Below, piece by piece: positions 4,841 to 47,190 of a stretch of 47,229 nt of DNA; within the stretch, counting starts at the first letter, position 1, and each line of letters starts with the position of its first letter. The position numbers and the translations under genes were made by a program. The notes below the pieces were generated by a model. The model was not told the origin of the DNA and did no database searches. It saw only the letters and a program-made list of their open reading frames with translations. Location: contig JBBTTD010000001.1 in assembly GCA_038064415.1 (NCBI GenBank), positions 79,738 to 126,966 on the forward strand, written 5' to 3'. Source of the stretch: Patescibacteria group bacterium. GTDB lineage: Bacteria; Patescibacteriota; Minisyncoccia; Phycocordibacterales; PALSA-1337.

Positions 4841-4844
4841 TTTC

Positions 4845-4863
4845 AGCGAGGTCCGACCTCGCT
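4845..4863. repeat. AGGT-N3-ACCT hairpin
   Basis: AGCGAGGT-CCG-ACCTCGCT. Confidence 0.75.
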
Positions 4864-4894
4864 AGTTAGCCAAGTAATCTGCTATAATGGTCCC

Positions 4895-6664: not shown

Positions 6665-6677
6665 TCAATAATCACCG

Positions 6678-6710
6678 AATTTGTAAAATTCGTGTAATTC
6701 GTTGATTCGT
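6678..6710. repeat. ~9-bp tandem repeat (AATTCGTNN)
   Basis: AATTTGTAA AATTCGTGT AATTCGTTG ATTCGT. Confidence 0.6.
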
Positions 6711-6725
6711 ATTATACTTTTTATC

Positions 6726-7295
6726 ATGAATTTATCCCAACAAATTGAAGCTATACTTTTTTGGAAAGCAGAACCTGTGGCTATAAAAAAATTAGCGGTA
6801 TTTCTGAATGTGGATGTACCGACGATAAAGACTGGGCTAACTGAATTAGAAAATATTTTGAGTGGTAGAGGAATCACTTTGGTCCAGACAAATGATGATG
6901 TAATGCTTGGTACCGCAAAAGAACTATCACCACTAATTGAAAAATTAACGAGAGAAGAATTGACCAAGGATTTAGGAAAAGCCAGTCTGGAGACTATCTC
7001 AATAGTTCTTTATCAAGGACCAATATCGCGATCCGAAATTGATTACATCCGCGGAGTAAACTCACAATTTATTTTGCGAAATCTACTCATTCGTGGATTA
7101 GTTGAACGCATCCCCAATCCAAAAGACGCACGAAGCTATCTTTACAAACCAACTCTGGAATTACTCTCTCATCTAGGCACATCCAAAATTGAAGAGTTGC
7201 CAGAGTATCAGCAAGTTAGAGAAGAGATTGAATCTTTTAAAGTAAATGTAAATCAATCACAAAAACAAGAAGAAGTAATGGGTCAAGAACTATAA
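6726..7295 (+). CDS. scpB: SMC-Scp complex subunit ScpB
   Basis: IEAILF, LETISIVLYQGPISRSEIDYIRGVNS; start moved to ATG 6726. Confidence 0.95.
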   Translation: MNLSQQIEAILFWKAEPVAIKKLAVFLNVDVPTIKTGLTELENILSGRGITLVQTNDDVMLGTAKELSPLIEKLTREELTKDLGKASLETISIVLYQGPISRSEIDYIRGVNSQFILRNLLIRGLVERIPNPKDARSYLYKPTLELLSHLGTSKIEELPEYQQVREEIESFKVNVNQSQKQEEVMGQEL

Positions 7296-7299
7296 TGCC

Positions 7300-8400
7300 A
7301 TGTCCTCAAATACCAAACCAATTGACCGTTTTTTTCTTCTCTCAATAGTTGTCTTGACGATTGCCGGATTCGTAATATTCCTATCCGCTTCACTCGGTCT
7401 TTTAGCACAAACTGGGGTGAATTTTGGCACGATCGCTTTGAAACAAACGATTAGTTTGGTGATTGGTATTATTTTGTTCATTATTTTTTCTAGATTTTCA
7501 TATCACAAAATTAGGAAGTTAGCTTTTTGGGGATTTATTATCGCAATCGGTGTCAATCTACTCTTATTTATTCCTAGTTTGTCACTCTACCATGGCGGGG
7601 CGACTCGCTGGATAGATATCAGCTTTATTTCATTTCAACCATCCGAATTATTAAAAATTACTTTTATTATATATTTAGCGGCTTGGATACATTTTGCTAA
7701 AGATCGAATCAAAACTTTCAAATTTGGTCTTTTACCATATATGATTATTATGGGCATATTGAGTTTGCTTCTGCTTGTTCAATCGGATACCGATACCTTA
7801 TTGGTTATTGGTTTTACAGGTATCATGATGCTCTTTATCGCTGGTTTGCCACTCAAACATACAATTATTAGCGGACTTTTGATGGCTTCAGTCGTCGTTG
7901 GAGTCATTTGGTTTCGCACGGATGCTTTGGAGCGTGTAAAAGTTTTTTTAAATCATTCTACTGACCAACAAGGAGCTGGCTATCAAATCAATCAGTCACT
8001 TATTGCGATTGGTTCTGGACAGATCACTGGACGCGGAGTTGGTCAAAGTATTCAAAAATTCGGTTATCTACCTGAACCAATTGGCGACTCTATTTTTGCC
8101 GTCGCGGCTGAAGAATTCGGCTTTGTTGGTAGTTCAATCTTACTTGTATTGTATATTTTGTTGGCGATCAGTTCTTTTAGAGTCGGTACGCGAGCGCGAG
8201 ATAATTTTGGTGGAATCGTGGCAATAGGCATTGCGATCTTGATAATTATCGAATCCTTCATGAACATTGGCGCAATGCTCGGCGTCATACCGCTATCAGG
8301 TATGCCTTTGTTGTTTGTCTCTCATGGTGGTACGGCCTTGGTGATTATTTTGGCGGCTACTGGAATAGTCGCGAATGTTTCGAGATATCCAAAAGAGTAG
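7300..8400 (+). CDS. ftsW: SEDS peptidoglycan glycosyltransferase FtsW
   Basis: Multi-TM; GATRWI, FQPSELLK, GYQINQS, LPEPIGD; upstream of murG. Confidence 0.88.
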   Translation: MSSNTKPIDRFFLLSIVVLTIAGFVIFLSASLGLLAQTGVNFGTIALKQTISLVIGIILFIIFSRFSYHKIRKLAFWGFIIAIGVNLLLFIPSLSLYHGGATRWIDISFISFQPSELLKITFIIYLAAWIHFAKDRIKTFKFGLLPYMIIMGILSLLLLVQSDTDTLLVIGFTGIMMLFIAGLPLKHTIISGLLMASVVVGVIWFRTDALERVKVFLNHSTDQQGAGYQINQSLIAIGSGQITGRGVGQSIQKFGYLPEPIGDSIFAVAAEEFGFVGSSILLVLYILLAISSFRVGTRARDNFGGIVAIGIAILIIIESFMNIGAMLGVIPLSGMPLLFVSHGGTALVIILAATGIVANVSRYPKE

Positions 8401-24575: not shown

Positions 24576-25457
24576 CTATTTTTCTACTAGCACCCATCTC
24601 ATTTGATAAATATTCACGGGCGGAGCAAAAAGAACTGTCTCAAAAGCTTGGGTTGGATCAGAAAGCACCATGAAAACTATGCCGAATGGCTTATCATTCA
24701 AAGCTGAATTAATGACAAAATCTCCTTCTTTTACGCTGGTATCACGAGAAATTTGAGCTTCATATTGTCCTCCACCACGACCAATAGCGGTTGCCGGAAT
24801 ATGTTCCGCGCCAATCAATACCTCATACTTTTCCCCAGGTGAAGAAAATAATTTTACTTTTGCTGTTGACGGCAAGATATCAACGACACGACCAATTAGA
24901 ACATTACCAACCGCGTAGATTAGACTGCTAGTAGAAAGATTGTAATCTCGTCCAATATCAATAATCAATCCGTCATACGGTAAAAATGGCGGTCGTTTGA
25001 GGACGGCGGACAGAATTCGTGATTCCAATTCTTTTGAAGTCATTTTAGAAATGAAAGAATATTTTGGAACCACATAGATAGTGGATGTCCCTGTTGAACT
25101 AGGATTAATAATTGATTCTACAATGAACGATTCTCGTCCCAAGAGACTTTTTAGTTCAGTGTTTTCCAATTCAATGGCCTGAATTGCGTCCAACCTGACT
25201 TGAGCATCAGTTAGTTGACGTTTGAGTCCTTCATTTTGATTGAGTAAAGATTCTGAAGACCGCAAAGACCCACTTAAAACAGAAAACTCCGTTCGCCAAA
25301 ATGGTCTAGCTAAACTTGTAAAAATAGAAGCAAAAAAATGCGGAGTGGATATTTGTAAAAGAACTATAATCACAACCAAAACCGCAATAGTGTAACCTAC
25401 GACACGAGCTCGACTCCGATATGGACGATTATGAGTTTGAAGGTAAGTCATCTTCAC
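24576..25457 (-). CDS. mreC: Rod shape-determining protein MreC
   Basis: TM, coiled coil ENTELKSLLG, IIDIG, LIGRV; follows mreB (ATG at 25451 also possible). Confidence 0.88.
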   Translation of the reverse strand: MKMTYLQTHNRPYRSRARVVGYTIAVLVVIIVLLQISTPHFFASIFTSLARPFWRTEFSVLSGSLRSSESLLNQNEGLKRQLTDAQVRLDAIQAIELENTELKSLLGRESFIVESIINPSSTGTSTIYVVPKYSFISKMTSKELESRILSAVLKRPPFLPYDGLIIDIGRDYNLSTSSLIYAVGNVLIGRVVDILPSTAKVKLFSSPGEKYEVLIGAEHIPATAIGRGGGQYEAQISRDTSVKEGDFVINSALNDKPFGIVFMVLSDPTQAFETVLFAPPVNIYQMRWVLVEK

Positions 25458-26493
25458 TTGCTATGAGCACTGAACGATAACGATCAAGATCTTCCAAAAT
25501 AATACCTGCTCCGCGGGCAATCGCGGTTAATGGATCTTCAGCGATAGTTACGGGAATACTTAAGGTTTCTATCAATAACAAATCTAAACCTTTAATCAAA
25601 GCACCACCACCAACCAAGTGTATTCCTCGTCTCATAATATCAGATAGGATTTCTGGCGGAGTCGTTTCTAAAACTTCCTTAGTCGCCTCAAGTAAAACAC
25701 TGACTGACTGACTAATCGCTTCACGAATATCAGAATCGGTTATTATGACTTCTCTTGGGAGACCCGTAATCAGATCTCTGCCACGAATCGTAGTCTCCAA
25801 TGGCTCGCCAGAGACTACTGTGCCGACCGCTAATTTCACCTGTTCAGCAGTTGTTTCACCAATTAATATTTTGAATTCGTTGCGGATATAAGAAATGATG
25901 TCAATATTGAGTTTGTCGCCGGCGATTTTTAGATTTTTTGAACGGACAATTCCACCTAAAGAGATAACGGCAATATCCGTGGTACCTCCACCAATGTCAA
26001 TAATCATACTCCCAACTGGATCATGAATCGGCAAACGAATTCCGATAGCTCCTGCCATTGGTTGTTCTATTATATAAACTTCCCTGGCACCGGCATTTTT
26101 TGTGGCATCACGCACCGCGCGAACTTCCACATTTGTCACGCCAGAAGGAACGCCGACAACTACTCGCGGTCCTAAAAATTTTTTAGGCATATATTCTCCC
26201 GCGCGCTTCATGAAATACACCAGCATTTCTTCAGTCACTTCAAAATCTGAAATCACTCCACCAACAAGCGGGCGCACGGCAATAATGTGAGCAGGTGTAC
26301 GACCAAGCATGTCTTTTGCGACTTGACCAACAGCTACAACCTGACCAGTCTTTTGATTGACCGCGACGACTGATGGTTCATTAACGACTATACCTTTTCC
26401 ACGAACATAAACCAAAGTATTGGCTGTGCCAAGATCAATACCGATGTCATTAGAAAAACGGCTAAACAGCTTTTCTTTTTGCTCATTAAACAT
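25429..26493 (-). CDS. mreB: Rod shape-determining protein MreB
   Basis: IGIDLGTANT, EPSVVA and DIGGGTTD motifs. Confidence 0.96.
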   Translation of the reverse strand: MFNEQKEKLFSRFSNDIGIDLGTANTLVYVRGKGIVVNEPSVVAVNQKTGQVVAVGQVAKDMLGRTPAHIIAVRPLVGGVISDFEVTEEMLVYFMKRAGEYMPKKFLGPRVVVGVPSGVTNVEVRAVRDATKNAGAREVYIIEQPMAGAIGIRLPIHDPVGSMIIDIGGGTTDIAVISLGGIVRSKNLKIAGDKLNIDIISYIRNEFKILIGETTAEQVKLAVGTVVSGEPLETTIRGRDLITGLPREVIITDSDIREAISQSVSVLLEATKEVLETTPPEILSDIMRRGIHLVGGGALIKGLDLLLIETLSIPVTIAEDPLTAIARGAGIILEDLDRYRSVLIASEDDLPSNS

Positions 26494-26719: not shown

Positions 26720-29700
26720 TTACCTCCCCTCTCTCTTTTTATTAGTTATAAGAAAGATAAAGATGGCTAAAATAATGAGAACAGTGAATATAATCACCCA
26801 AGTCCATGGAATATCTGATGCTGATACGAATGGGGTGGCGGCGAGAATTCTGTTGTCTGCTGAATTGATATCTTGTTGTACGATTGGGGCAGTGTATTCG
26901 TAGGCGCCTCTTGACCATGTCGTGCGAGTGCGACCAAGCATGTCAACATTGTAAGGTGCCGGTAACAGAGTGCCAGGATTTGTGTTCGTCTTTAGAGTAA
27001 AATCGTTTCCAGTGTAATTGTTGAATATGGATGTTGGAATGTTTAGTTGCTGATTAGCTTCTCCTAAAGAAGCCGAGCCAGAAAAGCCATTGTAATCATG
27101 AGTGGCTCCGGCAATAGTCGGAGTATTGGTATTTATCCATAAGTTGTTGTAAACATAATTGTTAGAGCCACCATTCAATGGAATGCCTGAAGCACCATAA
27201 GTACTATTGGCGAATGTGTTGTTGTAAATTTTGCAGTTTGAGCAATCATTTCTACCAAAACCAATGACACCATTACCGACTTGGTAGTTATAAACAATGT
27301 TGCCATAAATTTGATGTCCATTTGTCCAAGAAATTGCCATAATAGCCGTGCCACCGCCAGCGGGGGTAGAACCCTGACCCATAAACGAGTTTCTAAATTT
27401 GTTGTAACGAATGACGGAATTGTCGCCGTTGTAATATAGGTTTATGTTCTCACCATGATTGGCAGAATTACCCGTAATACGGTCTGACGCGGAATATTCA
27501 ATAACCGGGGCCTCACTATTTCGGACAAACCAATGTTGGGTACCGCCATCACAAAATACTCGCGAAAACACATGGCCGGTGCTATTTATAGTTTCACCAG
27601 AATTATTATCGGTACTTATACACATGCGGCGCACGCTAGTACCTGGCAAGTTTCCAACAATTGCAAGGATGTAAGTATATTTTAATGTCACATTATCTGT
27701 TCTGGCGCCATATTTCGCGATAGAAACTGATGGCCAATCACCATTGCTTCCTACGCTAAATCCATATGCTGTCTTATCAAACCAATCAGATTCATTACGA
27801 GTCTGTCCATCAAACACCCAGTTACTACTGGTGAACTCTAACGCTGTAAACACCGCCTGTCCATCTCCATAAGTGTTATCCCAACCTGTGGCTATTCCAT
27901 GATTTGCGACGGTTGCTTTCTTGATTGTGATAAGTTGTGTACTACTTTCTGGGTCATCAAAGACATATGATCCATAACTTCCATCAGCAACATAATATGT
28001 CGCTCCTCTTTGTAATGTAGCCGTAGCCGGAAGTGTGCTGTATGCGTTTGTCCAATCAGAACCTGAACCATTTCCTGTCGCTCCAGAACGGATGTAGAAA
28101 GTGGTTCCTGCAGGAATAACACTGAAGGTCGCGCTAATAGTATGATTAGCTGTAACATTTGAGAATGTATATGAGGTAACTGCTCCGACCGATACACCGT
28201 CAACTAGAACTCCAGCTACTTGATACCCAGAGTTTGGAGTGATGGTAAAGGTTTGGTTGCTTCCTGAAGTTACTGTAGCTGATGTTGGAGAGATTGAACC
28301 ATTTGCGCCTGTTGATGCAGTGATGGCGTAGGTAACAACAGAACCAACCGTCACTCCCACCGCACCCGAAGTCGTCACAGCTCCACTGTTGTCAGTGGCT
28401 CTAGCGGTTAGTGAATAGGTTCCAGCGCCGACACCTGTCCATGAATAAGAGTAAGGTGAAGTAGTGTCAGTACCTAGAAGTGTAGCTCCATTGTAGAACG
28501 CTACACTTGATATTGTTCCATCAGAGTCAGATGCTGTGGCGTTAATGGTGATTGAAGCCGGGGCTGTGAAAGTCGCTCCATTTACTGGTGAAGAGATAGA
28601 GACTGTAGGAGGGATGTTAGCGACAACTGCGTCATACTTGAATATTGTCTTGGTTACAGTATTAGCCGTAACTGGAACAGAAACTGAACAGAAACTAGAG
28701 GCGCAGGTTAGACCTACGGTAGTATATGAAGGAAGGCTAGTAACTGTACATTCTGTACCTCCTTCTGGATATGTACAGGTGGCATATGATTCAGTGTAAC
28801 CTATTGCATCTGTAGCAGAGACTGTGTGGTTAGCTACTGTGAGTGATGGGAATGTGGCTGGATTAACTGCTGTAGTTGCACCCGCATCTATTTTACTGAC
28901 TACTCCTGCTGGTGCCATAGCTACCGTCAAATCTGTACCGACTAGTTTAGTCATGATTGAACCAGTGGAGGCAGGAGGAGGGATGATATCAGTGTATTCG
29001 TAGGCACCGATATCCCAAACGCTATCTGCACCATGAATGTTTCCTGCCCTATCCACATTATAAGGACTAGATAAACTTCTCCCTACAACATTTGTGGCTC
29101 TTGCAAGTCTATAATCTCCCGCGGCATAATTAGCAAAAACAGAAGTGGTATCAACTCCATTGTTACCGAAGGTTCCCACTCCATTGTATACCACGGCGGA
29201 ATTCACAACCAAGTTGTTGTATGCCTCGTTGCCTGTCCCAACCGATACAGGGAAATGTACTGTTGGAGTATTTCCAACACCATTCACAAAAGTGTTATGA
29301 TGCACCTTTATGTTATAATTTTCCCAACCTGCGGCGATAGCACCATCTCCCATCTGATAATGTTCAAAGATGTTGCCATAAATTTGCGCGCCTTGCGTCC
29401 AAGCAAGAGCGATAACTCCAGTTCCGCCTACTTGTGCCCCCGTATTCTGGTCTCTAAAATGATTGTAACGAACGATGGCATTGGAACCAGGGGTATCACT
29501 ATAAAATAGATTTACGCTTTCAGAGTGATACAACGCCGAACCAGATGTGTCAGACCCCGCGCTGTACTCAACAATTGGACTAACTGTGTTGCGAACAAAA
29601 TAGGGATTGCTACTGCCTTTAATATACATGCGCGAAAATACATAACCAGTATTTCTGGCGGAACTATACGTATCTGTATCTACACCATGTACCCTTACCC

Positions 29701-32700
29701 CTCCATAAGTTGGCACTCCAATTAGAGCATCAATGAACAAATATTTGACAGTAACATTCGGCATGAGGGTTCCACTATTGGTGATTATCATGTGAGTGCC
29801 CCAGTTCCCATTGTTTGCTATTTTGAAACCATACGCATTTCCATCAAACCAGTCTCCCTCGTTTCTATATGAACCATCAAGGACAAAATAACCTCTATTT
29901 ACATTGATTAGTGTGGCAAAAACCGCTTGATTTGTACCATAACTCGCCTGCCATCCAGTACTAGTGCCATGATCTGTGGGAGATGCTTTCTTCATCGTAA
30001 TAACATTCGTGCCAGATTGGGGAGTATTGAATGTCCAAGTTGGATATGATCCACCTGCAACATAGTAAGTTGAACCACTTGTTCCACGATTTAGTGTTGT
30101 CGGAATAGCAGGATAGGCATTGGTCCAATCAGAGCCATTCATTAATCCGGCTCCGGATTGGGTAATATAGTAAGTAGTTCCGGTAACAACAGGACCAACA
30201 GTCACAGTCACACTCGCGCTGGCAGGTGTCGTTCCGACTGCTCCGGTACAAGTAGCAATAAATGTAGTGTCAGCTGTAAGTGCTCCAGAAGAGACATTGG
30301 TACCTGATATACCAGTCTGCCAAGGAGATCCCGCTCTGGTAATGTCACAGGCGGTAGCATTAGTTGAAGTCCATGAGATATTTGAGCTTCCACCAGATGT
30401 AACCGAGGTTGGGTTGGCGGAGATGTCAACGGTTGGCTTGAATGGTGAGGAGTTAAAGGTAGCAGTTACCGTGGTGTTAGCAGTCGGAGTAAAGGTACAT
30501 GATTGATTTGTGGTACAACTTCCAGCATTGCTCCAAATAACAAATGTTGAACCTGAGGCTGGAGTAGCTGTCAGAATAATTGAAGATCCTGGAGTGACAC
30601 TGCAGTTGGCAGGATTGCAAGTGACTGTACCCGTACCTGTGCCTAACTTGTTTACTGTGACGGTGTAGTTAGGAGGAGTTTCTGTCGGAGTAAAGACTAC
30701 ATCACGGAAGTAGTTGGAAGATATATATGTCTGTGTCGGATACGCGTTGACTGGGCCATAGCGACCGTTGCCCCCAACTATTGAACTAAGATTGCCTGAG
30801 GTAATTTTGGTTGCAAAACCTGTGGTGTTGACCACGTAGTATGTAGAACCTGTGTTAACTGTAACCATATACCCTGTATTGGCATTGATAGCAAGTGGAG
30901 TAGCGAGATTTTGTTGTTGCCAACCAGAAGCTGTTTCACCAGTGAATACTACTGAAGCTAATTGAACTCCAGAAGCATTCCAGATGCGACCTGTATGTGT
31001 CCCAGTTTCATGAGAATCCTTCCAAAATCTAATAGCTAGAATATTTCCAGTAACATCACTTTGAAAACGAGTTCCGAGTTCATAATTCACGCCTGCGCCA
31101 TCGGAAAGACCTAACAGAGTAGGAACTTGGGTAGTTAACAATGTCTGACCAACTACGGGCGGAGGTGAGATAAGATCAAAGGTTGCGTTAACAGGTATGA
31201 TACTGGCAGTTGGTGTGAAAGTGCATATAAGATTGGTGGTACAGTTTCCAGCTTTGGACCAACCAGTAAATGTTGAACTTGCAGCCGGAATAGCTGTCAG
31301 AGTGATTGAAGATCCTGGAGTGACACTGCAGTTGGCAGGATTGCAAGTGACTGTACCCGTACCTGTGCCTAGTTTGAATATAGTAACATTATATACAGAT
31401 GGAGAAATAGTGGTAAAAGTTTGATCAGTTGATTGAGAAATAACCCCGTTGGAAGATTTAATTTTGTAGTGATATATAGTATTAGCCGTTAAGCCAGAGA
31501 TTGTCTGAGAATGTGAAGTGACTAAAAGTGAATTAAGAGGTGTTTGGCTACCATAGGCAGAGGTTAGACCATATACTACTTGAGTATCTGCTGGTAAATC
31601 AGTGGTCCAGGAGATCGTGGCACTTGAAGTGGTGATGTTAGAAGTATTAATATTAGAGATTACTGAAGCATTTACGCTAACAGTAGCTGTCACTGACTTG
31701 GAAACTTGTGTGCCGTCTACTCCCGTACAAGTCAGAGTAAAGGTAGTCGTGGTAGTAAGACGTTGGGTTTCATAGTATTTGGTGGAGATTGGGACTGATT
31801 TGGTCGGTCCATCACCAGAGAGAGTACAGGATGAGACTGCCACAGGTAATGTTGTCCAAGCAAGCTCAACTGCTTGCCCTGAAACAGTTGATGAAGGAGA
31901 AACATTGAAGGAATAGATTTGAGGTGGGATGGGGGGTGGTGTAACTACTCCAGTGTAGTTATATAGATCCTGAATCTCTGAATTGGATAATGATCGGTTG
32001 TAGATTCTTACTTCATCCAATACACCTTGGAGGCGATCGGAATTACCGCCGTATTGTCCGAGATAAAGTGGTGAACTGTTAATTGCTGGCGTGATAGTTT
32101 GAGAGACACTGGTATTCAATGCTCCATTTATGTAAAGTCTGAAAGACGAACCATCCCAAGTACAAGCCACATGCGTTAGTTGATTGGCGGTGATTGTTGC
32201 TGTTGAAGTGACAGTATTACTAATCGTGCCATTACCAAATACACAAACAACATAATTATCATTTTTGACCTCCATGGCATAGTTATATGATCGACCGTCA
32301 TCATTAACATTACCCTTGGCAAATACACCATTCCATCGGCTGATAACTGGCAAATTGATCCATGTCGCAATTGTACCAGCCCCAGTTATATCTAGACTGC
32401 CATTGTCCGGAATGGAGATAAAATCGCTTGTCCCATTGAAGTTAAGTCCTCCTGCAATCTTTCCTGTGGTCCAAGTAGCACCATTAACACTGCCCGTATT
32501 ATTGTTGCCTGAAGTGTCATTGGCAATACTGCCTGTACCTTCATCAAGATTGTAGTATCCAACTAGACCACTGGTACTGGGTACAGATACTTGAGCAATC
32601 TGGGTTTGTGGCGAGATGGTAGTCACCTGTTTGGAAATTGTTTGGTATCCAAGGAAAGCTCCAGCGATTAGTAAAAGAACCACCAGAATGCCTAGTTGTT

Positions 32701-32707
32701 GTTTCAT
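26720..32707 (-). CDS. Giant modular surface protein (LamG-like, FN3, Ig/B-repeats, DUF4082-like, two beta-helix-like modules, C-terminal TM)
   Basis: GLVGYYNLDEG..LDEVRIYNRSLS; GLTANTIYHYKI; YELGTRF..NYFRDVVF; NIPPTVSISSP; two modules ending GAYEY. Confidence 0.88.
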   Translation of the reverse strand: MKQQLGILVVLLLIAGAFLGYQTISKQVTTISPQTQIAQVSVPSTSGLVGYYNLDEGTGSIANDTSGNNNTGSVNGATWTTGKIAGGLNFNGTSDFISIPDNGSLDITGAGTIATWINLPVISRWNGVFAKGNVNDDGRSYNYAMEVKNDNYVVCVFGNGTISNTVTSTATITANQLTHVACTWDGSSFRLYINGALNTSVSQTITPAINSSPLYLGQYGGNSDRLQGVLDEVRIYNRSLSNSEIQDLYNYTGVVTPPPIPPQIYSFNVSPSSTVSGQAVELAWTTLPVAVSSCTLSGDGPTKSVPISTKYYETQRLTTTTTFTLTCTGVDGTQVSKSVTATVSVNASVISNINTSNITTSSATISWTTDLPADTQVVYGLTSAYGSQTPLNSLLVTSHSQTISGLTANTIYHYKIKSSNGVISQSTDQTFTTISPSVYNVTIFKLGTGTGTVTCNPANCSVTPGSSITLTAIPAASSTFTGWSKAGNCTTNLICTFTPTASIIPVNATFDLISPPPVVGQTLLTTQVPTLLGLSDGAGVNYELGTRFQSDVTGNILAIRFWKDSHETGTHTGRIWNASGVQLASVVFTGETASGWQQQNLATPLAINANTGYMVTVNTGSTYYVVNTTGFATKITSGNLSSIVGGNGRYGPVNAYPTQTYISSNYFRDVVFTPTETPPNYTVTVNKLGTGTGTVTCNPANCSVTPGSSIILTATPASGSTFVIWSNAGSCTTNQSCTFTPTANTTVTATFNSSPFKPTVDISANPTSVTSGGSSNISWTSTNATACDITRAGSPWQTGISGTNVSSGALTADTTFIATCTGAVGTTPASASVTVTVGPVVTGTTYYITQSGAGLMNGSDWTNAYPAIPTTLNRGTSGSTYYVAGGSYPTWTFNTPQSGTNVITMKKASPTDHGTSTGWQASYGTNQAVFATLINVNRGYFVLDGSYRNEGDWFDGNAYGFKIANNGNWGTHMIITNSGTLMPNVTVKYLFIDALIGVPTYGGVRVHGVDTDTYSSARNTGYVFSRMYIKGSSNPYFVRNTVSPIVEYSAGSDTSGSALYHSESVNLFYSDTPGSNAIVRYNHFRDQNTGAQVGGTGVIALAWTQGAQIYGNIFEHYQMGDGAIAAGWENYNIKVHHNTFVNGVGNTPTVHFPVSVGTGNEAYNNLVVNSAVVYNGVGTFGNNGVDTTSVFANYAAGDYRLARATNVVGRSLSSPYNVDRAGNIHGADSVWDIGAYEYTDIIPPPASTGSIMTKLVGTDLTVAMAPAGVVSKIDAGATTAVNPATFPSLTVANHTVSATDAIGYTESYATCTYPEGGTECTVTSLPSYTTVGLTCASSFCSVSVPVTANTVTKTIFKYDAVVANIPPTVSISSPVNGATFTAPASITINATASDSDGTISSVAFYNGATLLGTDTTSPYSYSWTGVGAGTYSLTARATDNSGAVTTSGAVGVTVGSVVTYAITASTGANGSISPTSATVTSGSNQTFTITPNSGYQVAGVLVDGVSVGAVTSYTFSNVTANHTISATFSVIPAGTTFYIRSGATGNGSGSDWTNAYSTLPATATLQRGATYYVADGSYGSYVFDDPESSTQLITIKKATVANHGIATGWDNTYGDGQAVFTALEFTSSNWVFDGQTRNESDWFDKTAYGFSVGSNGDWPSVSIAKYGARTDNVTLKYTYILAIVGNLPGTSVRRMCISTDNNSGETINSTGHVFSRVFCDGGTQHWFVRNSEAPVIEYSASDRITGNSANHGENINLYYNGDNSVIRYNKFRNSFMGQGSTPAGGGTAIMAISWTNGHQIYGNIVYNYQVGNGVIGFGRNDCSNCKIYNNTFANSTYGASGIPLNGGSNNYVYNNLWINTNTPTIAGATHDYNGFSGSASLGEANQQLNIPTSIFNNYTGNDFTLKTNTNPGTLLPAPYNVDMLGRTRTTWSRGAYEYTAPIVQQDINSADNRILAATPFVSASDIPWTWVIIFTVLIILAIFIFLITNKKREGR
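30579..31371. repeat. 67-bp exact direct repeat pair inside the giant gene
   Basis: 30579-30645 identical to 31305-31371. Confidence 0.9.
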
Positions 32708-32815: not shown

Positions 32816-32824
32816 TTATCCACA
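32816..32824 (+). promoter_or_regulatory. Consensus DnaA box
   Basis: TTATCCACA. Confidence 0.5.
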
Positions 32825-36597: not shown

Positions 36598-37611
36598 CTA
36601 CCTCTTACTAATTATCGTCTTTTTATAGACATCCAAATGCTCCAATGCCACGCCCGTTCCCTTCACCACGCATAGATGAGGATCTTCGGCCATTACCGCC
36701 TTCACGCCCGTTCGGCGCAAGACCAATTCTGGAAAATTACGAAGCATGGCTGAACCACCCGTCATCGTGATCCCCTGATCAATAATATCTGCCGCTAATT
36801 CTGGCGGAGTCTCTTGGAGAACATCTTTGATGGCTTTGATCATATCTCGCAACGGAGTGGCAATAGCTTTTACGATCTCATTAGTCTTGATTTCAGCGGA
36901 ACGAGGTAAACCAGAAATATAATCACGGCCCTTCACCGACATAGAAAGTTCTTGGTCAAGCGGAATGGCAGAGCCGATATTGATTTTAATTATTTCGGCC
37001 ATGTGATCGCCAATCGCCAGATTGAAAGTTTTTTTGACATAATCAGTAATAGCCGCGTCAATTTTATTACCCGCGCATTTTACTGAAATAGATGAGACGA
37101 TTCCTCCAAGAGAAATCACGGCAACATCAGTGGTGCCGCCGCCAATATCAACGACCATGTGCCCTCGCGGTTCATGAATCGGTATACCAGCGCCAATTGC
37201 GGCCAAAACCGGCTCCTTGACAACATAAGCGTTCTTGGCGCCAGCACGCAATGTCGCCTCAACGACTGCGCGTCTTTCTGTTGAAGTAACGCTTGCCGGC
37301 ACGGAAACTATCACATCCGGTTTGAAAAGTGACCAGCGGCCGAGAGCTTTGTCTATGAAATATCGAAGCATGGCTTCGGTCACGCGATAGTCGGCAATCA
37401 CGCCATCGCGCATTGGTCTATAGGCAATAATAGTATCTGGAGTACGACCAAGCATTTCCTTGGCTTCATTACCAACTGCTAGAACTTTTTTATCAACCTG
37501 ATTTACGGCAACGACTGAAGGCTCATTTAAGACAATCCCTTTTTCCGGCACAAAGACAAGGGTATTTGCGGTGCCGAGATCAATTCCGAGTTTCGGTGAA
37601 AATATACTCAT
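36598..37611 (-). CDS. mreB: Second MreB/Mbl-family actin homolog
   Basis: LGIDLGTANT, RPMRDGVIADY, DIGGGTTD; start moved to ATG 37611. Confidence 0.92.
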   Translation of the reverse strand: MSIFSPKLGIDLGTANTLVFVPEKGIVLNEPSVVAVNQVDKKVLAVGNEAKEMLGRTPDTIIAYRPMRDGVIADYRVTEAMLRYFIDKALGRWSLFKPDVIVSVPASVTSTERRAVVEATLRAGAKNAYVVKEPVLAAIGAGIPIHEPRGHMVVDIGGGTTDVAVISLGGIVSSISVKCAGNKIDAAITDYVKKTFNLAIGDHMAEIIKINIGSAIPLDQELSMSVKGRDYISGLPRSAEIKTNEIVKAIATPLRDMIKAIKDVLQETPPELAADIIDQGITMTGGSAMLRNFPELVLRRTGVKAVMAEDPHLCVVKGTGVALEHLDVYKKTIISKR

Positions 37612-37648
37612 GAACGAAATGTACCATAAATCAGGAACTAGGCAATGT

Positions 37649-39028
37649 TTACCGAGCTTTATCCGTTCTTTCAATTTCAACTCCTAAAATTTTTAATCGC
37701 TCTTCTATTTTTTCGTATCCCCTATCAATCAAGTGAACGTTGTTAATCGTAAATTTTCCATTCCCAATTAACGCCGCGACAATCAAGGCAAATCCCGCTC
37801 TAATATCATGCGCGGTTAATTCTTCATTTTCCGATAATTCGTGAAGTGGGGTCGGTCCTTTAATTTTTATTTCTCGTGAATTGATAGTGGTAATATTTGC
37901 TCCCATTTTGATTAGATCTCCAACATATTTAAATCGCCCCTCAAATATTGTCTCGCGAATAGAAAATTGACCCTTAATTTGAGTTAAGAACACGACCAGT
38001 GGCGGTTGCAAGTCAGTCGGAAAACCAGGATACTCTAAAGTCTTAATACTTCTCGGAAGTGTACTATTGATAAAATCACTAGCCGAAACAATTATGGAAT
38101 CCTTTTCAATTTTAATATTTACACCCAACTCAACTAATAATTTAACGACCGTATTCATATGTTTTGGCTGACATTTTTCAATTTTTAATTTTTTCGCGCA
38201 CAAAGCTCCTAAAATAAGAAAACTTCCAGCTTCAATCCGATCTGGAATAGTCACGAATGATTCCTTGAATGAAAGTAACTTTCCGTTAGTCCCTTCAACT
38301 TCAATCGTCGGCGTGCCGATACCTTTGATATTTGCTCCGCAGACATTCAACCATTCAGCAACATTGGCGATCTCCGGTTCACGAGCGCAATTATTCAAAA
38401 CTGTTTTACCTTTTGCCAAAACCGCGGCCATCATCAAAGTCTCCGTGGCACCGACAGAAATTTTGCTAAAAGTAATTTCCGCGCCTTTCAAACCATCAAT
38501 CGCGGAAATTTTATGCAAGCAATCATTTTCTTCTTTAACCGTCGCGCCCATTTTTCCATAACCGGACAAAAATAAATCAATTGGTCTCGCGCCAATCACA
38601 CAACCACCGGGTGCCGGAAAACTTACTTTACCGAATCGACCCATTAAAGAACCTGTTAAAACTATTGACGCTCTCATACTTGTCGCTAATTCTGGATCAA
38701 TTTCCGTTGAGTTGATCCCAGTCGCGTCTATTTCTAAAATCAGGCCACCACTATTTTTACTTGCTCTTTGAGGTTCTGGGCTAGCGGGAAACGAGGTGAA
38801 GCTTTTTTCTTTTACATTAATTTTCGCGCCCATTTTTTCCAAAATGCTTATCATCGTCTGGATGTCACTATTATCTGGCACATTCTCAAGTATCACTGGA
38901 CCATCAAAAAGTATTGACGCGGCCATGGCTTTCAGCGCGGAATTTTTAGCGCCATTTATGATCACGGCGCCGTGGAGTTTCTTTTCTCCCGCGAGGCCTT
39001 GTATGATAAATTCGTCATTTTTGTCCAT
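37649..39028 (-). CDS. murA: UDP-GlcNAc 1-carboxyvinyltransferase
   Basis: GAKNS, GGCVIGARP, YPGFPTDLQ, DIRAG and IDRGYE motifs. Confidence 0.96.
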   Translation of the reverse strand: MDKNDEFIIQGLAGEKKLHGAVIINGAKNSALKAMAASILFDGPVILENVPDNSDIQTMISILEKMGAKINVKEKSFTSFPASPEPQRASKNSGGLILEIDATGINSTEIDPELATSMRASIVLTGSLMGRFGKVSFPAPGGCVIGARPIDLFLSGYGKMGATVKEENDCLHKISAIDGLKGAEITFSKISVGATETLMMAAVLAKGKTVLNNCAREPEIANVAEWLNVCGANIKGIGTPTIEVEGTNGKLLSFKESFVTIPDRIEAGSFLILGALCAKKLKIEKCQPKHMNTVVKLLVELGVNIKIEKDSIIVSASDFINSTLPRSIKTLEYPGFPTDLQPPLVVFLTQIKGQFSIRETIFEGRFKYVGDLIKMGANITTINSREIKIKGPTPLHELSENEELTAHDIRAGFALIVAALIGNGKFTINNVHLIDRGYEKIEERLKILGVEIERTDKAR

Positions 39029-43147: not shown

Positions 43148-43366
43148 TCAACGGGGTTCAATAGAAATAATTTTTGCGGACGCGTGATGTCCACTGATTA
43201 TGCGAACTATCATCTCTGGACACATATGCCGTACAATCTCCAAAATTTTTTCATTGGCTTGATTGTTTTCAGGAGACTCTTTGATGGAAATGTCATAGCG
43301 ATCATCAGCAATCTTTTTGATCTTTTCTTGTTTTGCGTCTGTTTCTACGTGAATCTTTATATACAT
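43148..43366 (-). CDS. DUF167/YggU-family protein
   Basis: MYIKIHV..ISIKESPENNQAN..IISGHHASAK; upstream part of the ORF is antisense to the tRNA. Confidence 0.8.
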   Translation of the reverse strand: MYIKIHVETDAKQEKIKKIADDRYDISIKESPENNQANEKILEIVRHMCPEMIVRIISGHHASAKIISIEPR

Positions 43367-43438
43367 ATTTTTTGATTTACACGACGAGATGTGATACATT
43401 TTGGCATGTTCAAGCATTAAATAATAGCTTGAAATCAT

Positions 43439-43514
43439 TCCGCGGTAGCTCAGCCGGTAGAGCGCCTCCCTGTTAAGGAGGATGTCCCAGGTTCGATCCC
43501 TGGCCGCGGAGCCA
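43439..43514 (+). tRNA. tRNA-Asn(GTT)
   Basis: Acceptor TCCGCGG/CCGCGGA, anticodon arm CCTCC-CTGTTAA-GGAGG, TTCGA T-loop, encoded CCA. Confidence 0.97.
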
Positions 43515-43552
43515 AGAAATCTGAAATGACGCGCTCCGCCACTATTTTTTTG

Positions 43553-43611
43553 GGGTCTGGGGAGGAATCCGCGCAGGCTTCGGCTTTCTTTTTTCAAAAA
43601 ATCGGCGGCTA
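43553..43611 (+). repeat. Left 59-bp inverted repeat of the cassette
   Basis: 54/59 match to the reverse complement of 47132-47190. Confidence 0.92.
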
Positions 43612-43629
43612 AATTCATAAATACATTAT

Positions 43630-43660
43630 ATCCTAATTTGGGATTATTCTGCAATAGGAT
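43630..43660 (+). promoter_or_regulatory. Tandem C-box-like operator pair
   Basis: ATCC-N7-GGAT followed by ATTC-N7-GGAT upstream of the XRE gene. Confidence 0.55.
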
Positions 43661-43677
43661 ATATCATAGAAACATAT

Positions 43678-43899: not shown

Positions 43900-44607
43900 A
43901 TGTTAGTACAAAAATTCGACAAATTTTTACAATCGGTTGATCTCAAGGCATATCGTGAAAAATATATGCCGATTAAAATTGTGGAAATGAATCTTCCTAA
44001 AAGCATCCAAGCGATCGAGCTTTTGTATCGTGTCTACTGGGATGAGAAAAAATTTATTGACTTTGAAGAGTTTTATGGAATTTACGAGAAAGAAAAAGGG
44101 CGAGAGCTTCGCAAGTTTCAGAAGAAAAGTGGTATGTGTCCCAGGTGTTTTGCGAAAGGCATAAAAGCTAGAACATATAGAACTTGGGCAGGGCTCATCA
44201 CACAAATTCATGCAGGGTATGTTGCTGGACAAGTGTTCGGACTTGATACAGTAAAAATGTCCGAGCAACTTGATCACCAAGATGCCGACATTCAAGTGCA
44301 TTATAAGGGAATCGTTATTAACTATGATGTGAAAAAGATAGCGAACGCTGGAGTAATGGGACGCGGCCATGTTCCGAAAAGGCCAATTCCTGGAGAAAAG
44401 ATCTCGATTCGTTATGAAGTGCCCAACCTTGATATTGTTTTACATCCAAAAAAGAAAAGGGGGGTTGGATTTAAAAAAGCTTTTATAGATTTTGCAGATA
44501 AATATTTAAAAACCAACATGCTCCATGTGTTTCCAAATGGTTTTGTAGTTTTTACCCCGTATACTTTTGAGCAAAAGAAAAAAGAGATAGATAACTCCCT
44601 AAAATAA
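43900..44607 (+). CDS. TaqI-family type II restriction endonuclease
   Basis: FDKFLQSVDLKAYREKYMPIKIVEMNLP and ARTYRTW resemble TaqI as recalled; D..D-x-K core (DADI..YDVK). Confidence 0.8.
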   Translation: MLVQKFDKFLQSVDLKAYREKYMPIKIVEMNLPKSIQAIELLYRVYWDEKKFIDFEEFYGIYEKEKGRELRKFQKKSGMCPRCFAKGIKARTYRTWAGLITQIHAGYVAGQVFGLDTVKMSEQLDHQDADIQVHYKGIVINYDVKKIANAGVMGRGHVPKRPIPGEKISIRYEVPNLDIVLHPKKKRGVGFKKAFIDFADKYLKTNMLHVFPNGFVVFTPYTFEQKKKEIDNSLK

Positions 44608-46122
44608 TTTAGCAACTGACTTTTTATCGCCCACCATTTTTTCTGCCAGTCTCACATAATCTGGATTAATCTCAAAACCGATATAAGATTGACCTAATTC
44701 TTTTGCCGCCGCACACTCCGAGCCAGTACCAACAAAGGGTACTAATACAACGCCATCTTTTTTTGGCATAGCAGATTTTATCAATTTTTTAGATAGTTCG
44801 AATGGTTTTTGTGTTGGGTGCTTCATTATTTCATGCCCATCATGATTTTTCAGTTGTCGTGGTTCGCAAACAGAATCGCAAGTTTTACACAAAAACCATC
44901 TCTCAATCATTCCGGCTCCACCGGCAAGAGCAGGGATTTTGATAACATCTCTTGGTAAAGCTCCGCCGTCGTGGGCTTTATAAACTGTTTCTAAACCGCT
45001 ACTACTAAATCTCCCTAGCGTTCCTTTTCTTACCTTTCCGGCGGCTCCGTTTAAGAATCCTTCCGTGTATGGCTCCCTAACTTCATCTCTGTTGAAAATC
45101 GGCTTATCTTTCCATGCGCAAATTATAGCTTCGTGGCTTCTTTGCCAGAAATTGAGCGAAGCGACATTTTTGTTTGTATAGTGCCAAATCAACCACCGTT
45201 TTTGTATAGGAATTTCGATTGAAAGATATGCCAAAATTTCACTGAAACCATAAATAAACATTGTCCCATTCGGCTTTAGAATTCTTATACTTTCATTTAT
45301 CCAACTTTTGCACCATTCTACATATTCTCCGAGTTCTCGTTTGTCTGTATTGTTGCCAAAATCTTTTCCGATATTATAGGGCGGATCAATTATGACGACA
45401 TCACAACTTTCGTCAGGAAGTTTCCTTAGTTCTTGAACAGCATCCCCTAAAATTATTTGATTAAGTGGTAGTTTCTTTTCTTTTTTTACTTCTTTTGTTG
45501 TTGTAATTTTTTCTGCCTGCAATTCTTCCTCGTTTTTTATAACATCAATGACAACACCTTGAATTTTAATATCGCGATCTTTTCTAATGATAATTGGCTC
45601 AAAAGTTTTATTTGCGGGTTGCAATCTAATATGTCCTCGTTCTTGATAAAATTTCTTTAGTGTTGCTTCTTGGTTATCTATCAAAGCAACGACGCGCTCT
45701 CCATTCTCCGCCGTGTCTTGTTGCTTTACTAAGACAACATCTCCATCTTGAATATTCTCATCAATCATACTATTTCCACTTACACGCAGAGCATAAAGAT
45801 TGCCAGTACTAGGTAGAATATTTTTGGGAACAGCAATAAATTCGTCTTGGCGAATTACTTCTATTGGTTCACCGGCGGCGATAGTTCCTAAAAACGGAAT
45901 TTTGATCATTGGCTCCTTGGAAGCAACGCTAATAGCACGAGCCTTGTTTTCTGTTTTTCCTAAATAGCCACCCTCTTTGAGTTTTGAAATATGAAAATGA
46001 ATAGTTGAAACAGAAGCGAGCTTAAGTCGTTTTCTAATTTCCTCAAAAGAAGGAGAGTACCCCTTCTTTTGCGAATAGTTTTCTACGAAGTCGAGGACTT
46101 CTTTTTGGCGTTTTGTTAACAT
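44599..46122 (-). CDS. lexA: LexA repressor fused to a beta-class N4/N6 DNA methyltransferase
   Basis: wHTH, AAG cleavage site, GNSM, TLKK; then DPPY..HPTQKP..PFVGTGS. Confidence 0.92.
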   Translation of the reverse strand: MLTKRQKEVLDFVENYSQKKGYSPSFEEIRKRLKLASVSTIHFHISKLKEGGYLGKTENKARAISVASKEPMIKIPFLGTIAAGEPIEVIRQDEFIAVPKNILPSTGNLYALRVSGNSMIDENIQDGDVVLVKQQDTAENGERVVALIDNQEATLKKFYQERGHIRLQPANKTFEPIIIRKDRDIKIQGVVIDVIKNEEELQAEKITTTKEVKKEKKLPLNQIILGDAVQELRKLPDESCDVVIIDPPYNIGKDFGNNTDKRELGEYVEWCKSWINESIRILKPNGTMFIYGFSEILAYLSIEIPIQKRWLIWHYTNKNVASLNFWQRSHEAIICAWKDKPIFNRDEVREPYTEGFLNGAAGKVRKGTLGRFSSSGLETVYKAHDGGALPRDVIKIPALAGGAGMIERWFLCKTCDSVCEPRQLKNHDGHEIMKHPTQKPFELSKKLIKSAMPKKDGVVLVPFVGTGSECAAAKELGQSYIGFEINPDYVRLAEKMVGDKKSVAKLF

Positions 46123-46128
46123 ATAGAC

Positions 46129-46179
46129 TTGACTTGTTTACTACACATCAATTATAATAGAACAAAAGTAGAAAATCAA
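46129..46179. promoter_or_regulatory. Overlapping divergent promoters with an SOS-box-like site
   Basis: Minus: TTGATT-17-TATAAT; plus: TTGACT-18-TATAAT; GAAC-AAAA-GTAG at 46160-46171. Confidence 0.6.
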
Positions 46180-46186
46180 AGTCGAG

Positions 46187-46195
46187 TTATCCACA
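46187..46195 (+). promoter_or_regulatory. Consensus DnaA box
   Basis: TTATCCACA. Confidence 0.45.
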
Positions 46196-46219
46196 TAAGA
46201 GAAGTAGTAAAAATATAAT

Positions 46220-47134
46220 ATGGCATTAATACCCCCAGCATACTTAAATTCAGTTTTATCGATTGGAGTAAGTATAAAAAATGAAAAAAATGAATCAACT
46301 TTTAAATCGCTAGCAACCGGTTTTTTGGTAGGTAAGCCCGTTGGAGAAAAGAATGAGAAAGGACAGCGGTCTTATCGACTATTTGTTGTTACGAATAGAC
46401 ACGTTTTTTACAACGATAAAACTAAGCAGTATGTAAAAGAAGTGCTATTCCGCTTCAATACAACCGAAGGGAAAAGTCATCATTTTAAAGTCAAGTTGCT
46501 TAATTCAGAAAATAAGCCAATTTGGTCAATGCATAGTGATGAAAAAGTTGATTTGGCTGTTCTTCCCATTAACGCCAACGCTATTAGTGAAGCTGGTGTA
46601 GACTTCTATTTCTTCAGAGAAAACGATCTTTTTTATGCCAATAATTTTAAAACCAAGAACATCTCTACGGGAGATGGACTTTTTGTCTTAGGATTTCCAA
46701 TGAGTATAAGCGGTAAGTCAAAAAATTTTGTTATTGTTAGGCAGGGTATCATTGCTCGCGTTGACGAGGAGGTGCTTGAAGATAAGTTTTATTTCATTGA
46801 TGCCTCTGCGTACCCTGGAAATAGTGGTGGACCGGTTATTGTAAAACCAGAAATTGTATCAATACAAGGAATTAACAGTAATAATTCGGCGGGCCTGATT
46901 GGAGTTATTAGCTCCGGGGTAACATATTCTGATGTAGCTGTTAGTCAGCAAACTGGTGAAGCTAAAGTCATATTTACAGAACAAACAGGGTTAGTAAAAG
47001 TTGTGCCAGTTGAACTGATTTACGAAATAATCGACGAAATAACCAAACCGTCCGTAACAAAAGAAGAAGCAGAGGTTAAGGAGGCTGGTTCTGAAGTCAA
47101 AACAGAAGAAACTGTTGAGAATAATAAAACATAG
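46220..47134 (+). CDS. Cytoplasmic trypsin-like serine protease
   Basis: VTNRHV (His), VDLAVL (Asp), PGNSGGP (Ser); no signal peptide; acidic tail. Confidence 0.88.
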   Translation: MALIPPAYLNSVLSIGVSIKNEKNESTFKSLATGFLVGKPVGEKNEKGQRSYRLFVVTNRHVFYNDKTKQYVKEVLFRFNTTEGKSHHFKVKLLNSENKPIWSMHSDEKVDLAVLPINANAISEAGVDFYFFRENDLFYANNFKTKNISTGDGLFVLGFPMSISGKSKNFVIVRQGIIARVDEEVLEDKFYFIDASAYPGNSGGPVIVKPEIVSIQGINSNNSAGLIGVISSGVTYSDVAVSQQTGEAKVIFTEQTGLVKVVPVELIYEIIDEITKPSVTKEEAEVKEAGSEVKTEETVENNKT

Positions 47135-47190
47135 CCGCCGATTTTTTCAAAAAAGAAAGCCAGAGCCCGCACGGATTCCTCCCCAGACCC
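47132..47190 (-). repeat. Right 59-bp inverted repeat of the cassette
   Basis: Begins with the protease TAG stop codon. Confidence 0.92.

Follow-up and report, generated by a model that had tools for sequence, protein, structure and literature searches.

What does a DNA methyltransferase gain from carrying a complete and apparently cleavable LexA repressor at its N terminus? The question is raised by one gene in a 47,229-nucleotide stretch of DNA from a Patescibacteria group bacterium (NCBI GenBank assembly GCA_038064415.1, contig JBBTTD010000001.1, positions 79,738 to 126,966 of the forward strand), which was analysed as a whole and is called the window below. The gene converges on that of a TaqI-family restriction endonuclease (REase), and its product joins LexA to a beta-class N6_N4 DNA methyltransferase. 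With a probability of roughly 0.55, we read this product as a self-repressing regulatory methyltransferase that would be cleaved in response to RecA, making methylation SOS-inducible, and as the enzyme of a mobile TaqI-family Type II restriction-modification (R-M) module. An earlier note, made from the letters of this DNA, had already pointed in that direction, and its claims are taken up where the results bear on them. The coordinates of all features are collected in Table 1.

A LexA repressor joined to a DNA methyltransferase

The domain-architecture search found LexA_DNA_bind, Peptidase_S24, and N6_N4_Mtase in the fusion, each far above its Pfam cutoff, and the NCBIfam lexA equivalog model TIGR00498 scored 191.5 bits against a cutoff of 110.95 over residues 2-197. 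Among solved structures, the top match was LexA (3k2z, 2.3e-37, residues 2-196), followed by the beta-class methyltransferases 9c3u and 8urk (about 5e-28), with further matches of the methyltransferase part to M.RsrI, M.MboIIA, and CcrM. Short motifs were placed at residues 82 (AAGE), 116 (GNSM), 154 (TLKK), 246 (DPPY), and 463 (FVGTGS). The beta class is defined by motif order, with motif IV (D/S-PPY) ahead of the S-adenosylmethionine (AdoMet) motif I (FxGxG); since DPPY precedes FVGTGS here, the methyltransferase has the beta order. We take Ala83-Gly84, Ser118, and Lys156 of the fusion to be the counterparts of Ala84-Gly85, Ser119, and Lys156 in Escherichia coli LexA. The earlier note had described a complete LexA, with a winged helix-turn-helix (wHTH), an Ala-Gly site and a Ser/Lys dyad, followed by a beta-order methyltransferase in a single open reading frame (ORF), and on this point Pfam, TIGR00498, and the motifs all agree with it. 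By every sequence test, the fusion is both a LexA and a beta-class methyltransferase.

The residues expected to carry out autocleavage have been kept throughout the family. Ala83, Gly84, Ser118, and Lys156 were invariant in all 121 aligned family members, and the cleavage and dyad residues were retained in 42 of 42 distant proteins that start with LexA (41 of them with a methyltransferase), as they were in the 24 stand-alone LexA proteins used for comparison. Conservation across the 121 and the 42 argues for selection on cleavage and not on DNA binding alone. The linker between the halves behaves differently from these residues: positions 198-225 were the least conserved stretch of the 121-member alignment, with a column identity of 0.58 to 0.64. 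In an AlphaFold2 model (mean predicted local distance difference test score, pLDDT, 72.6; predicted template modelling score 0.52), the LexA and methyltransferase cores were confident, and pLDDT fell below 50 in the cleavage loop (85-91), in the linker (199-211), and in much of the target-recognition region. Because the linker is poorly conserved and predicted to be disordered, the two halves could act independently once cleaved. It holds no Met, and there is thus no obvious internal start for a separate methyltransferase.

The fusion belongs to a large family, which the earlier note had missed together with its spread over four methyltransferase classes. A search of a 5.8-billion-protein set returned 6342 proteins at E<=0.001 among 8000 scored candidates, and the best 120 of these 6342 were examined. 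All 120, which came from several sources, were 485-515 amino acids (aa) long, 75-96% identical to the query, and carried the three Pfam domains. They were named either "transcriptional repressor LexA" or "site-specific DNA-methyltransferase", and their taxa included Falkow-, Jorgensen-, Yonath-, Taylor-, and Gribaldobacteria, Minisyncoccales, and other Patescibacteria. Among species-representative genomes, 79 loci were retrieved (numbered L001-L079), the first 39 of which were searched by tblastn; 32 of the 39 had a LexA-plus-methyltransferase match, in one case (L026) in two frames. There a frame change divides the fusion (6001-7525) into two pieces, LexA with 170 aa and methyltransferase with 274 aa, a sign of decay.

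More distant relatives were drawn from a library clustered at 50% identity, from which 43 of 150 listed proteins were taken (at least 378 aa long, with a match to the LexA part). LexA_DNA_bind, S24, and a DNA methyltransferase domain were found together in 41 of the 43; the methyltransferase was N6_N4 in 29, D12 (Dam-like) in 4, gamma-class N6_Mtase/Eco57I in 6, two of which also carry TaqI_C, and C5 in 2. As for the remaining two, P0124 had no wHTH and P0207 no recognised methyltransferase. The C5 version is itself a large family, since the best 120 matches of one such protein, P0252, were all of the three-domain type and, where named, came from Parcubacteria, Patescibacteria, or Paceibacterota. 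ESM Atlas clusters with the fusion architecture had between 50 and 515 members and were mostly labelled Minisyncoccota; two were labelled mostly viral, a label based on few records. Fusions were absent from cultured phage and plasmid records, with no place covering at least 80% of the query in 171 phage and 443 plasmid records. Judged by domain content, LexA-methyltransferase fusions are widespread in Patescibacteria, to which most of those with a named source belong, and form a large family that spans four methyltransferase classes.

The fusion promoter and its probable link to host LexA

Ahead of the fusion's start codon, the minus strand carries in this order the 9-mer TGTGGATAA (46195-46187), TTGATT (46179-46174), a direct repeat (46173-46158), and TATAAT (46156-46151). 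The repeat, with the geometry (T/G)TTC-N7-(T/G)TTC and an 11-bp period, is a putative LexA operator. We compared it in the 31 related loci whose 5' end is intact; in 28 of these, TTC[TG]A-N6-TTC[TG]A was found 25-60 nt ahead of the start. The three exceptions have another repeat in the same place and with the same period, TGCTCGGGT-TT-TGCTCGGGT (GCTCGGGT twice) in L012 and L022, and TTTCGGT-TAAT-GTTCGGT (TTCGGT twice) in L028. In these same three loci the recognition helix differs as well (SPSTTHEHLTTL and SISNIHQHIQAL versus SVST.HFH..KL), and the methyltransferase halves are still about 70-77% identical to that of the window. This co-variation of repeat type with recognition helix is the main evidence on the point, and it supports binding of the promoter repeat by the fusion's wHTH and, with it, autoregulation of the gene. 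The earlier note had held that the methyltransferase represses its own gene: a putative operator in its own promoter, co-varying with the helix, was found, and autorepression would be the expected consequence.

Direct-repeat LexA boxes of the form GTTC-N7-GTTC are documented in Alphaproteobacteria in the consulted part of PMC8565304, and a Patescibacteria SOS study is cited for a direct-repeat LexA motif in the consulted part of PMC7739468. Such boxes share with the window operator the tandem half-sites and the 11-bp spacing; the half-sites here are TTTCTA/GTTCTA, compared with GTTC-N7-GTTC. In the 47-kb window, the operator gave one exact match and 5 matches at <=1 mismatch versus 2.98 expected; further copies in the window were therefore rejected, the counts not exceeding chance. 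Upstream of 40 stand-alone Acidobacteriota lexA genes (L040-L079), the direct-repeat pattern was present in 16, and another conserved element dominates there. We also considered TCGA within the operator as a methylation-sensitive switch. This is not general, since only L008 and L010 have TCGA within the repeat; in some loci, including the window, it occurs between the 9-mer and the -35 element.

Promoter-like sites recur at this position in both directions, with a forward site scoring at least 9/12 in 26 of 32 upstream regions and a reverse site scoring at least 10/12 in 22 of 32. In the window, the outward site and the fusion promoter have their -10 region in common; the outward site points toward the trypsin-like gene (46220-47134) and has the operator at its predicted start. 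The operator may thus control both directions, including the divergent trypsin-like gene.

The 9-mer at the upstream border is the complement of TTATCCACA, which we take to be the consensus DnaA box. Across 31 loci it was exact in 23, had one mismatch in 6 (once inverted), and was absent from 2; it is retained whatever the operator type, beside a variable spacer. In 20 loci, the blastn alignment with the window stops at 46195-46200, that is, at the 9-mer. The window holds two exact copies, and 8 at <=1 mismatch versus 13.5 expected, and a role as a general promoter element of the genome was rejected on these counts. The second exact copy (32816-32824, minus strand) lies about 110 nt upstream of the gene for a 1995-aa protein. 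A role as a C-protein site is unlikely, as the 9-mer is exact in L022 and L028, where tblastn gave an REase but no C gene. It may be an input of DnaA, and thus of replication status, to the promoter, or else a recombination border of the module.

Stand-alone LexA proteins were searched for with residues 1-200 of the fusion as the query. Many proteins of about 206-218 aa were 62-70% identical to it, some of them encoded on contigs of 40-222 kb, under the names Uhrbacteria, Pacebacteria, and Patescibacteria. Most of the examples inspected had an SVSTAHFHV.KL-type recognition helix, which some fusions, such as those of L008, L010, and L015, have as well. That this helix is common to the fusion's LexA part and to stand-alone Patescibacteria LexA had escaped the earlier note, and it makes cross-talk between the fusion module and the host SOS regulon likely. 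In a midpoint-rooted FastTree tree of LexA domains, whose support values were not inspected, the fusions all grouped with the Patescibacteria stand-alone LexA proteins in one clade, apart from the other stand-alone LexAs, and the four methyltransferase classes were interleaved within it. Seven stand-alone LexA proteins (P0294, P0303, P0320, P0323, P0331, P0287, and P0302) share a tail after S24 of approximately the form F.KKL.WMK.

The restriction-modification module and its surroundings

The earlier note had the fusion converge on the REase (ORFs 43900..44607, plus strand, and 44599..46122, minus strand) with an overlap of 9 nt, and this holds exactly, the overlap being 44599-44607. The REase scored 102.4 bits against the RE_TaqI cutoff of 26.1. 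Where the contig extends beyond the fusion (28 loci), a TaqI-family REase converges on it in 23. In L021, the REase was matched as two pieces in different frames (4681-5357), again a sign of decay. Ahead of the window REase and in the same orientation lies a C-protein-like Xre gene, which ends 3 nt before the REase start and has weak solved-structure matches to C.BclI (2.2e-4), C.Esp1396I (3.2e-3), and C.AhdI (3.5e-3). A relative of this gene was found by tblastn in 12 related loci, and the alignment of its upstream regions showed a block of invariant columns at the inverted repeat in 13 of 13 sequences, as is typical of C-boxes. A candidate for the separate controller that the earlier note had assigned to the REase is thus at hand, in the form of a C-like gene with a conserved C-box-like repeat ahead of the REase.

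The sequence TCGA is rare in the window, with 45 occurrences where 131 are expected; among the 16 palindromic 4-mers, only one has a ratio below its 0.34. The cassette holds 2.75 TCGA sites per kb, compared with 0.80 per kb elsewhere. Such depletion would fit a chromosome that has long been exposed to TCGA restriction, a specificity suggested by the REase family. With the RE_TaqI partner and the TCGA depletion as hints, the expected target of the methyltransferase is TCGA, with methylation at N6 of adenine. ACGT is depleted more than TCGA in the whole window (25 observed versus 83.5 expected, ratio 0.30), and a second restriction activity, specific for ACGT and without a gene in the window, may have exerted pressure. 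A distant fusion (L039, 5911-8209, 34% identity) converges on a BsaWI-family REase, and the LexA head therefore also serves R-M systems with other REase families.

Two 59-nt inverted repeats bracket a 3.6-kb cassette that holds the C gene, the REase gene, the LexA-methyltransferase gene, and the trypsin-like gene; no further copy of the repeat is present within the window. The same repeats flank the module in L007 (4821-4880 and 8500-8558) and L030 (4979-5039 and 8500-8558). The additional gene is trypsin-like in the window and in L030, and of the Schlafen AlbA_2 type in L007. A tRNA-like match adjoins the module also in L029 and L030. The whole resembles a small mobile element for defence, with inverted repeats at its ends.

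The module is also a mosaic, because the REase diverges more than the fusion (50-58% identity to most relatives, while the fusion reaches 95%) and blastn identity to related loci falls near 44530. The LexA part is accessory, a point that the earlier note had missed: variants of the same system include relatives with a wHTH-only methyltransferase (L035) or with a plain one without LexA (L032 and L033). There are also fusions without a recognisable REase (L034) and others with unknown ORFs beside them (L006 and L008). The shuffling of LexA heads and methyltransferases can be seen directly. In L036, the promoter and LexA part of the window are present at 88.8% DNA identity and lead into a different N6_N4 methyltransferase, giving a fusion of 51% aa identity overall, followed by a D12 methyltransferase; in L012 and L022, the window-type methyltransferase stands under another LexA head. 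From this we infer a portable promoter-plus-LexA cassette of Patescibacteria origin.

Table 1. Features of the fusion gene, its promoter region and the surrounding module, in window coordinates
Feature	Position	Strand	Basis or remark
LexA-methyltransferase fusion gene	44599..46122	-	single ORF, 507 aa, ATG start
LexA winged-HTH DNA-binding domain, residues 2-63	45934..46119	-	Pfam PF01726 LexA_DNA_bind, 1.5e-15
Recognition-helix region of the fusion wHTH, SVSTIHFHISKL	within 45934..46119	-	
S24 autopeptidase/dimerisation domain, residues 76-192	45547..45897	-	Pfam PF00717 Peptidase_S24, 9.5e-32
Predicted cleavage site Ala83-Gly84	45871-45876	-	
Ser118 codon	45769-45771	-	
Lys156 codon	45655-45657	-	
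Lys/Glu-rich linker between LexA and methyltransferase, residues 198-225	45448..45531	-	conservation and pLDDT
Beta-class N6_N4 DNA methyltransferase domain, residues 241-495	44638..45402	-	Pfam PF01555, 1.1e-37
Promoter-like site of the fusion: TTGATT, 17 nt, TATAAT	46151..46179	-	consensus scan 10/12
Putative LexA operator TTCTAC-TTTTG-TTCTA	46158..46173	-	11-bp period, fills -35/-10 spacer
Outward promoter-like site: TTGACT, 18 nt, TATAAT	46129..46158	+	consensus scan 11/12
DnaA-box-like 9-mer TGTGGATAA	46187..46195	-	upstream border of conserved module
TaqI-family restriction endonuclease gene, 235 aa	43900..44607	+	Pfam RE_TaqI (PF09573), 3.1e-29
C-protein-like Xre HTH gene, 72 aa	43678..43896	+	Pfam HTH_3, 1.4e-15
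C-box-like inverted repeat ATATCCTA ... TAGGATAT	43628..43662	+	upstream of C gene
Trypsin-like serine protease gene, divergent from fusion	46220..47134	+	Pfam Trypsin_2, 6.5e-13
Left arm, 59-nt inverted repeat	43553..43611		arms 92% complementary
Right arm, 59-nt inverted repeat	47132..47190		
tRNA-Asn (GTT) beside cassette	43439..43514	+	ARAGORN

Outside the cassette, the window is otherwise housekeeping in content (grpE-dnaK-dnaJ, scpAB, ftsW, murG, mreBC, aminoacyl-tRNA synthetases, priA, def, and fmt). It includes two MreB paralogues (25429-26493 and 36598-37680, both on the minus strand) and the 1995-aa protein mentioned above (26720-32707, minus strand), which carries Laminin_G_3, DUF4082, Flg_new_2, and Big_7 and is probably a surface protein. 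A 168-aa ORF at 43148-43654 (minus strand) is probably over-extended; only its residues 97-166 match DUF167 (YggU), and its N-terminal part is antisense to the tRNA-Asn and the left inverted repeat. Its tblastn matches in L007, L029, and L030 are matches to the repeat, because the ORF overlaps it.

A possible SOS switch for modification

LexA dimerisation is textbook knowledge, and the fusion would likewise dimerise through its S24 domain. The dimer would bind the (T/G)TTC-N7-(T/G)TTC repeat between the -35 and -10 elements and repress its own gene, and this autorepression would keep the methyltransferase at a set level, as in the SsoII-type regulatory methyltransferases. RecA filaments on single-stranded DNA, arising from DNA damage, from breaks where the module's own REase cuts unmodified sites, or from incoming single-stranded DNA, would then bring about the cut between Ala83 and Gly84 and release the wHTH. 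With the promoter freed, more methyltransferase would be made, acting as the full-length protein or as the S24-methyltransferase fragment. The additional methylation would protect the chromosome where repair, recombination, or DNA uptake has left unmodified sites, and likewise after nicks or cuts by the module's own REase or upon the module's arrival in a new cell. In effect, it would be a counterpart of restriction alleviation for a Type II system. Since stand-alone Patescibacteria LexA proteins share the recognition helix, the module promoter is probably under host LexA as well, and the fusion can probably occupy host SOS boxes. As for the earlier note's interpretation as a whole, its anatomical parts stand, as do the operator and the C-protein unit; RecA cleavage and the net effect on methylation stay at the level of proposal.

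Several points weigh against this reading. The operator assignment depends on three loci with two variant operator types. A full LexA can be dispensed with, given that the systems of L035, L032, and L033 work without one, and the link with restriction is not obligatory, no recognisable REase lying beside the fusion in L034, L006, and L008. Among the ORFs of the 47-kb window that were scanned with Pfam, none was a recA or a further lexA or S24 gene. With a resident LexA of the same specificity, the fusion's repression of its own gene may contribute little to the control, and if the S24-methyltransferase fragment were degraded, the outcome would be the opposite of the one proposed.

A wider version of the same idea is possible, and we hold it tentatively. 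It sees in the fusions a phylum-wide device of Patescibacteria, possibly also of phages, in which modification is an SOS output: a portable cassette of promoter and LexA, set on at least four unrelated methyltransferase classes, would plug into the host regulon and take a further input, that of replication status, through the DnaA-box-like site. RecA would sense self-restriction, repair synthesis, or incoming single-stranded DNA, the repressor would be cut off, and a burst of methylation would follow. If this is true, mobile R-M modules would join the host SOS regulon, by virtue of a DNA specificity shared with host LexA, and could perturb it, and the fusion would do for Type II systems what restriction alleviation does elsewhere.

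The rival that survives best, although we think it rather unlikely, is that the fusion is the cell's own and possibly only LexA, a global SOS repressor with the methyltransferase as a passenger that adds an epigenetic output, and with a main role at host SOS genes and not in the care of R-M. The TIGR00498 score above the equivalog cutoff, the "transcriptional repressor LexA" of the source names, the recognition helix of stand-alone Patescibacteria LexA, the lack of another lexA in the window, and the shared clade in the FastTree tree (support values not inspected) would all fit this. Yet the gene lies in a 3.6-kb cassette between 59-nt inverted repeats with a tRNA gene alongside, and its relatives are 75-96% identical across metagenome-assembled genomes labelled as many different candidate phyla, with differing outer genes, a pattern that suits a mobile module better than a regulator passed on by vertical descent. 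A second operator in the 47 kb, moreover, did not emerge from the counts given above (1 exact; 5 at <=1 mismatch versus 2.98 expected), and stand-alone LexA genes exist in the phylum.

We consider it improbable that the fusion is a suicide or addiction trigger, in which cleavage would expose degradation signals, the methyltransferase fragment would be lost, methylation would fall, and the stable REase would kill the damaged or phage-infected cell in an abortive-infection logic. R-M systems do kill upon loss of methylation, according to the consulted part of PMC3874152. The cleavage residues are conserved, and the cut would leave Ile-Ala-Ala at the end of the N-terminal product (I81 in 121, A82 in 115, and A83 in 121 of 121 family members). 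A similar end, Val-Ala-Ala, marks a fragment of E. coli LexA for ClpXP. That tag, however, is on the wHTH fragment and not on the methyltransferase fragment; the same cut frees the promoter and should raise synthesis, and orphan fusions without an REase, such as that of L034, would gain nothing from such a trigger.

Equally doubtful is the idea that the LexA part serves solely as a binding and dimerising module for SsoII-like autorepression, with no SOS input and with its cleavage competence a leftover. Regulatory methyltransferases with an N-terminal HTH are an established class in the consulted parts of PMC12707154 and PMC3978073, and the wHTH-only relative in L035 would be a case in point. 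An active site that is not under selection would, however, be expected to decay somewhere among four methyltransferase classes, whereas the Ala-Gly site, Ser, and Lys were kept in all 121 and all 42 proteins, including LexA parts of only about 40-50% identity. Finally, an artefact was rejected, whether a chimeric assembly or an overlooked stop or frameshift separating a lexA gene from a methyltransferase gene. The two frames of L026 might point that way, but against it stand the single three-domain ORF in all 120 best relatives, which several independent sources contributed, the matches in 32 genome loci, and the ESM Atlas clusters of 50 to 515 members.

Among known systems, the methyltransferases of the M.SsoII and M.Ecl18kI type come closest, in which an N-terminal HTH is fused through a flexible linker and autorepression occurs at an operator (consulted parts of PMC3978073, PMC6100179, and PMC12707154). 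The fusion resembles them in its fused N-terminal DNA-binding domain and in the operator at its own promoter. Unlike in the SsoII type, the head is a complete LexA with an S24 autopeptidase, which a DNA-damage signal could remove; the methyltransferase is of the beta-class N6_N4 type and not a C5 enzyme; and a C protein is additionally present in the window module. The operators of the SsoII type, moreover, lie between divergent M and R promoters and also activate the REase, a feature that the fusion lacks. Its REase is convergent at the 3' end, and the divergent neighbour is the trypsin-like protease gene. With the REase convergent at the other end, the fusion operator cannot directly switch it on.

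In its other half, the protein shares with LexA (TIGR00498; 3k2z and 1jhh) the wHTH and S24 fold, the Ala-Gly site, the Ser/Lys dyad, and a putative operator in its own promoter, and differs from plain LexA by about 300 extra methyltransferase residues and by its place in a mobile R-M cassette. The module as a whole is similar to C-controlled Type II R-M systems (C.BclI, C.AhdI, and C.Esp1396I) in having a small Xre C gene before the REase and an inverted repeat ahead of it. It is unlike them in that the methyltransferase has a second, independent controller in LexA, and C was found by tblastn in just 12 loci.

A functional analogue is the alleviation of Type I restriction after damage, which depends on ClpXP and spares the chromosome at unmodified sites (consulted parts of PMC4231737, PMC11109961, and PMC12707154). 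In both cases the chromosome would be spared during repair or upon entry into a new host. Alleviation, however, cuts restriction through proteolysis of HsdR, whereas the fusion would raise modification through transcriptional derepression, and the components and the enzyme type differ as well.

It is only partly understood how the host of a Type II R-M system escapes being killed when unmodified sites arise, and to our knowledge damage-responsive relief is known only for Type I systems. In the literature searched, no LexA-methyltransferase fusion was described, Sanchez-Osuna et al. 2017, on the SOS response of Patescibacteria, being known to us by citation; the word LexA is absent from a 270,000-character 2025 review of R-M biology that lists control modes (PMC12707154). 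Databases already cluster and automatically name LexA-methyltransferase fusions. What is new is a repressor, predicted to be cleavable upon damage, that is built into a modification enzyme and recurs on four methyltransferase classes. Source names that read plainly "LexA" or "methyltransferase" can mislead reconstructions of Patescibacteria SOS regulons and censuses of R-M systems.

If the reading is true, the fusion would connect modification directly with the SOS response, in a way that is easy to test. Patescibacteria are known to have few other defences, and the recurrence of the LexA head with four methyltransferase classes suggests selection for a link between SOS and modification in very small genomes. 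The sequences suggest, in sum, that Patescibacteria cells tie self-protective methylation to the DNA-damage alarm.

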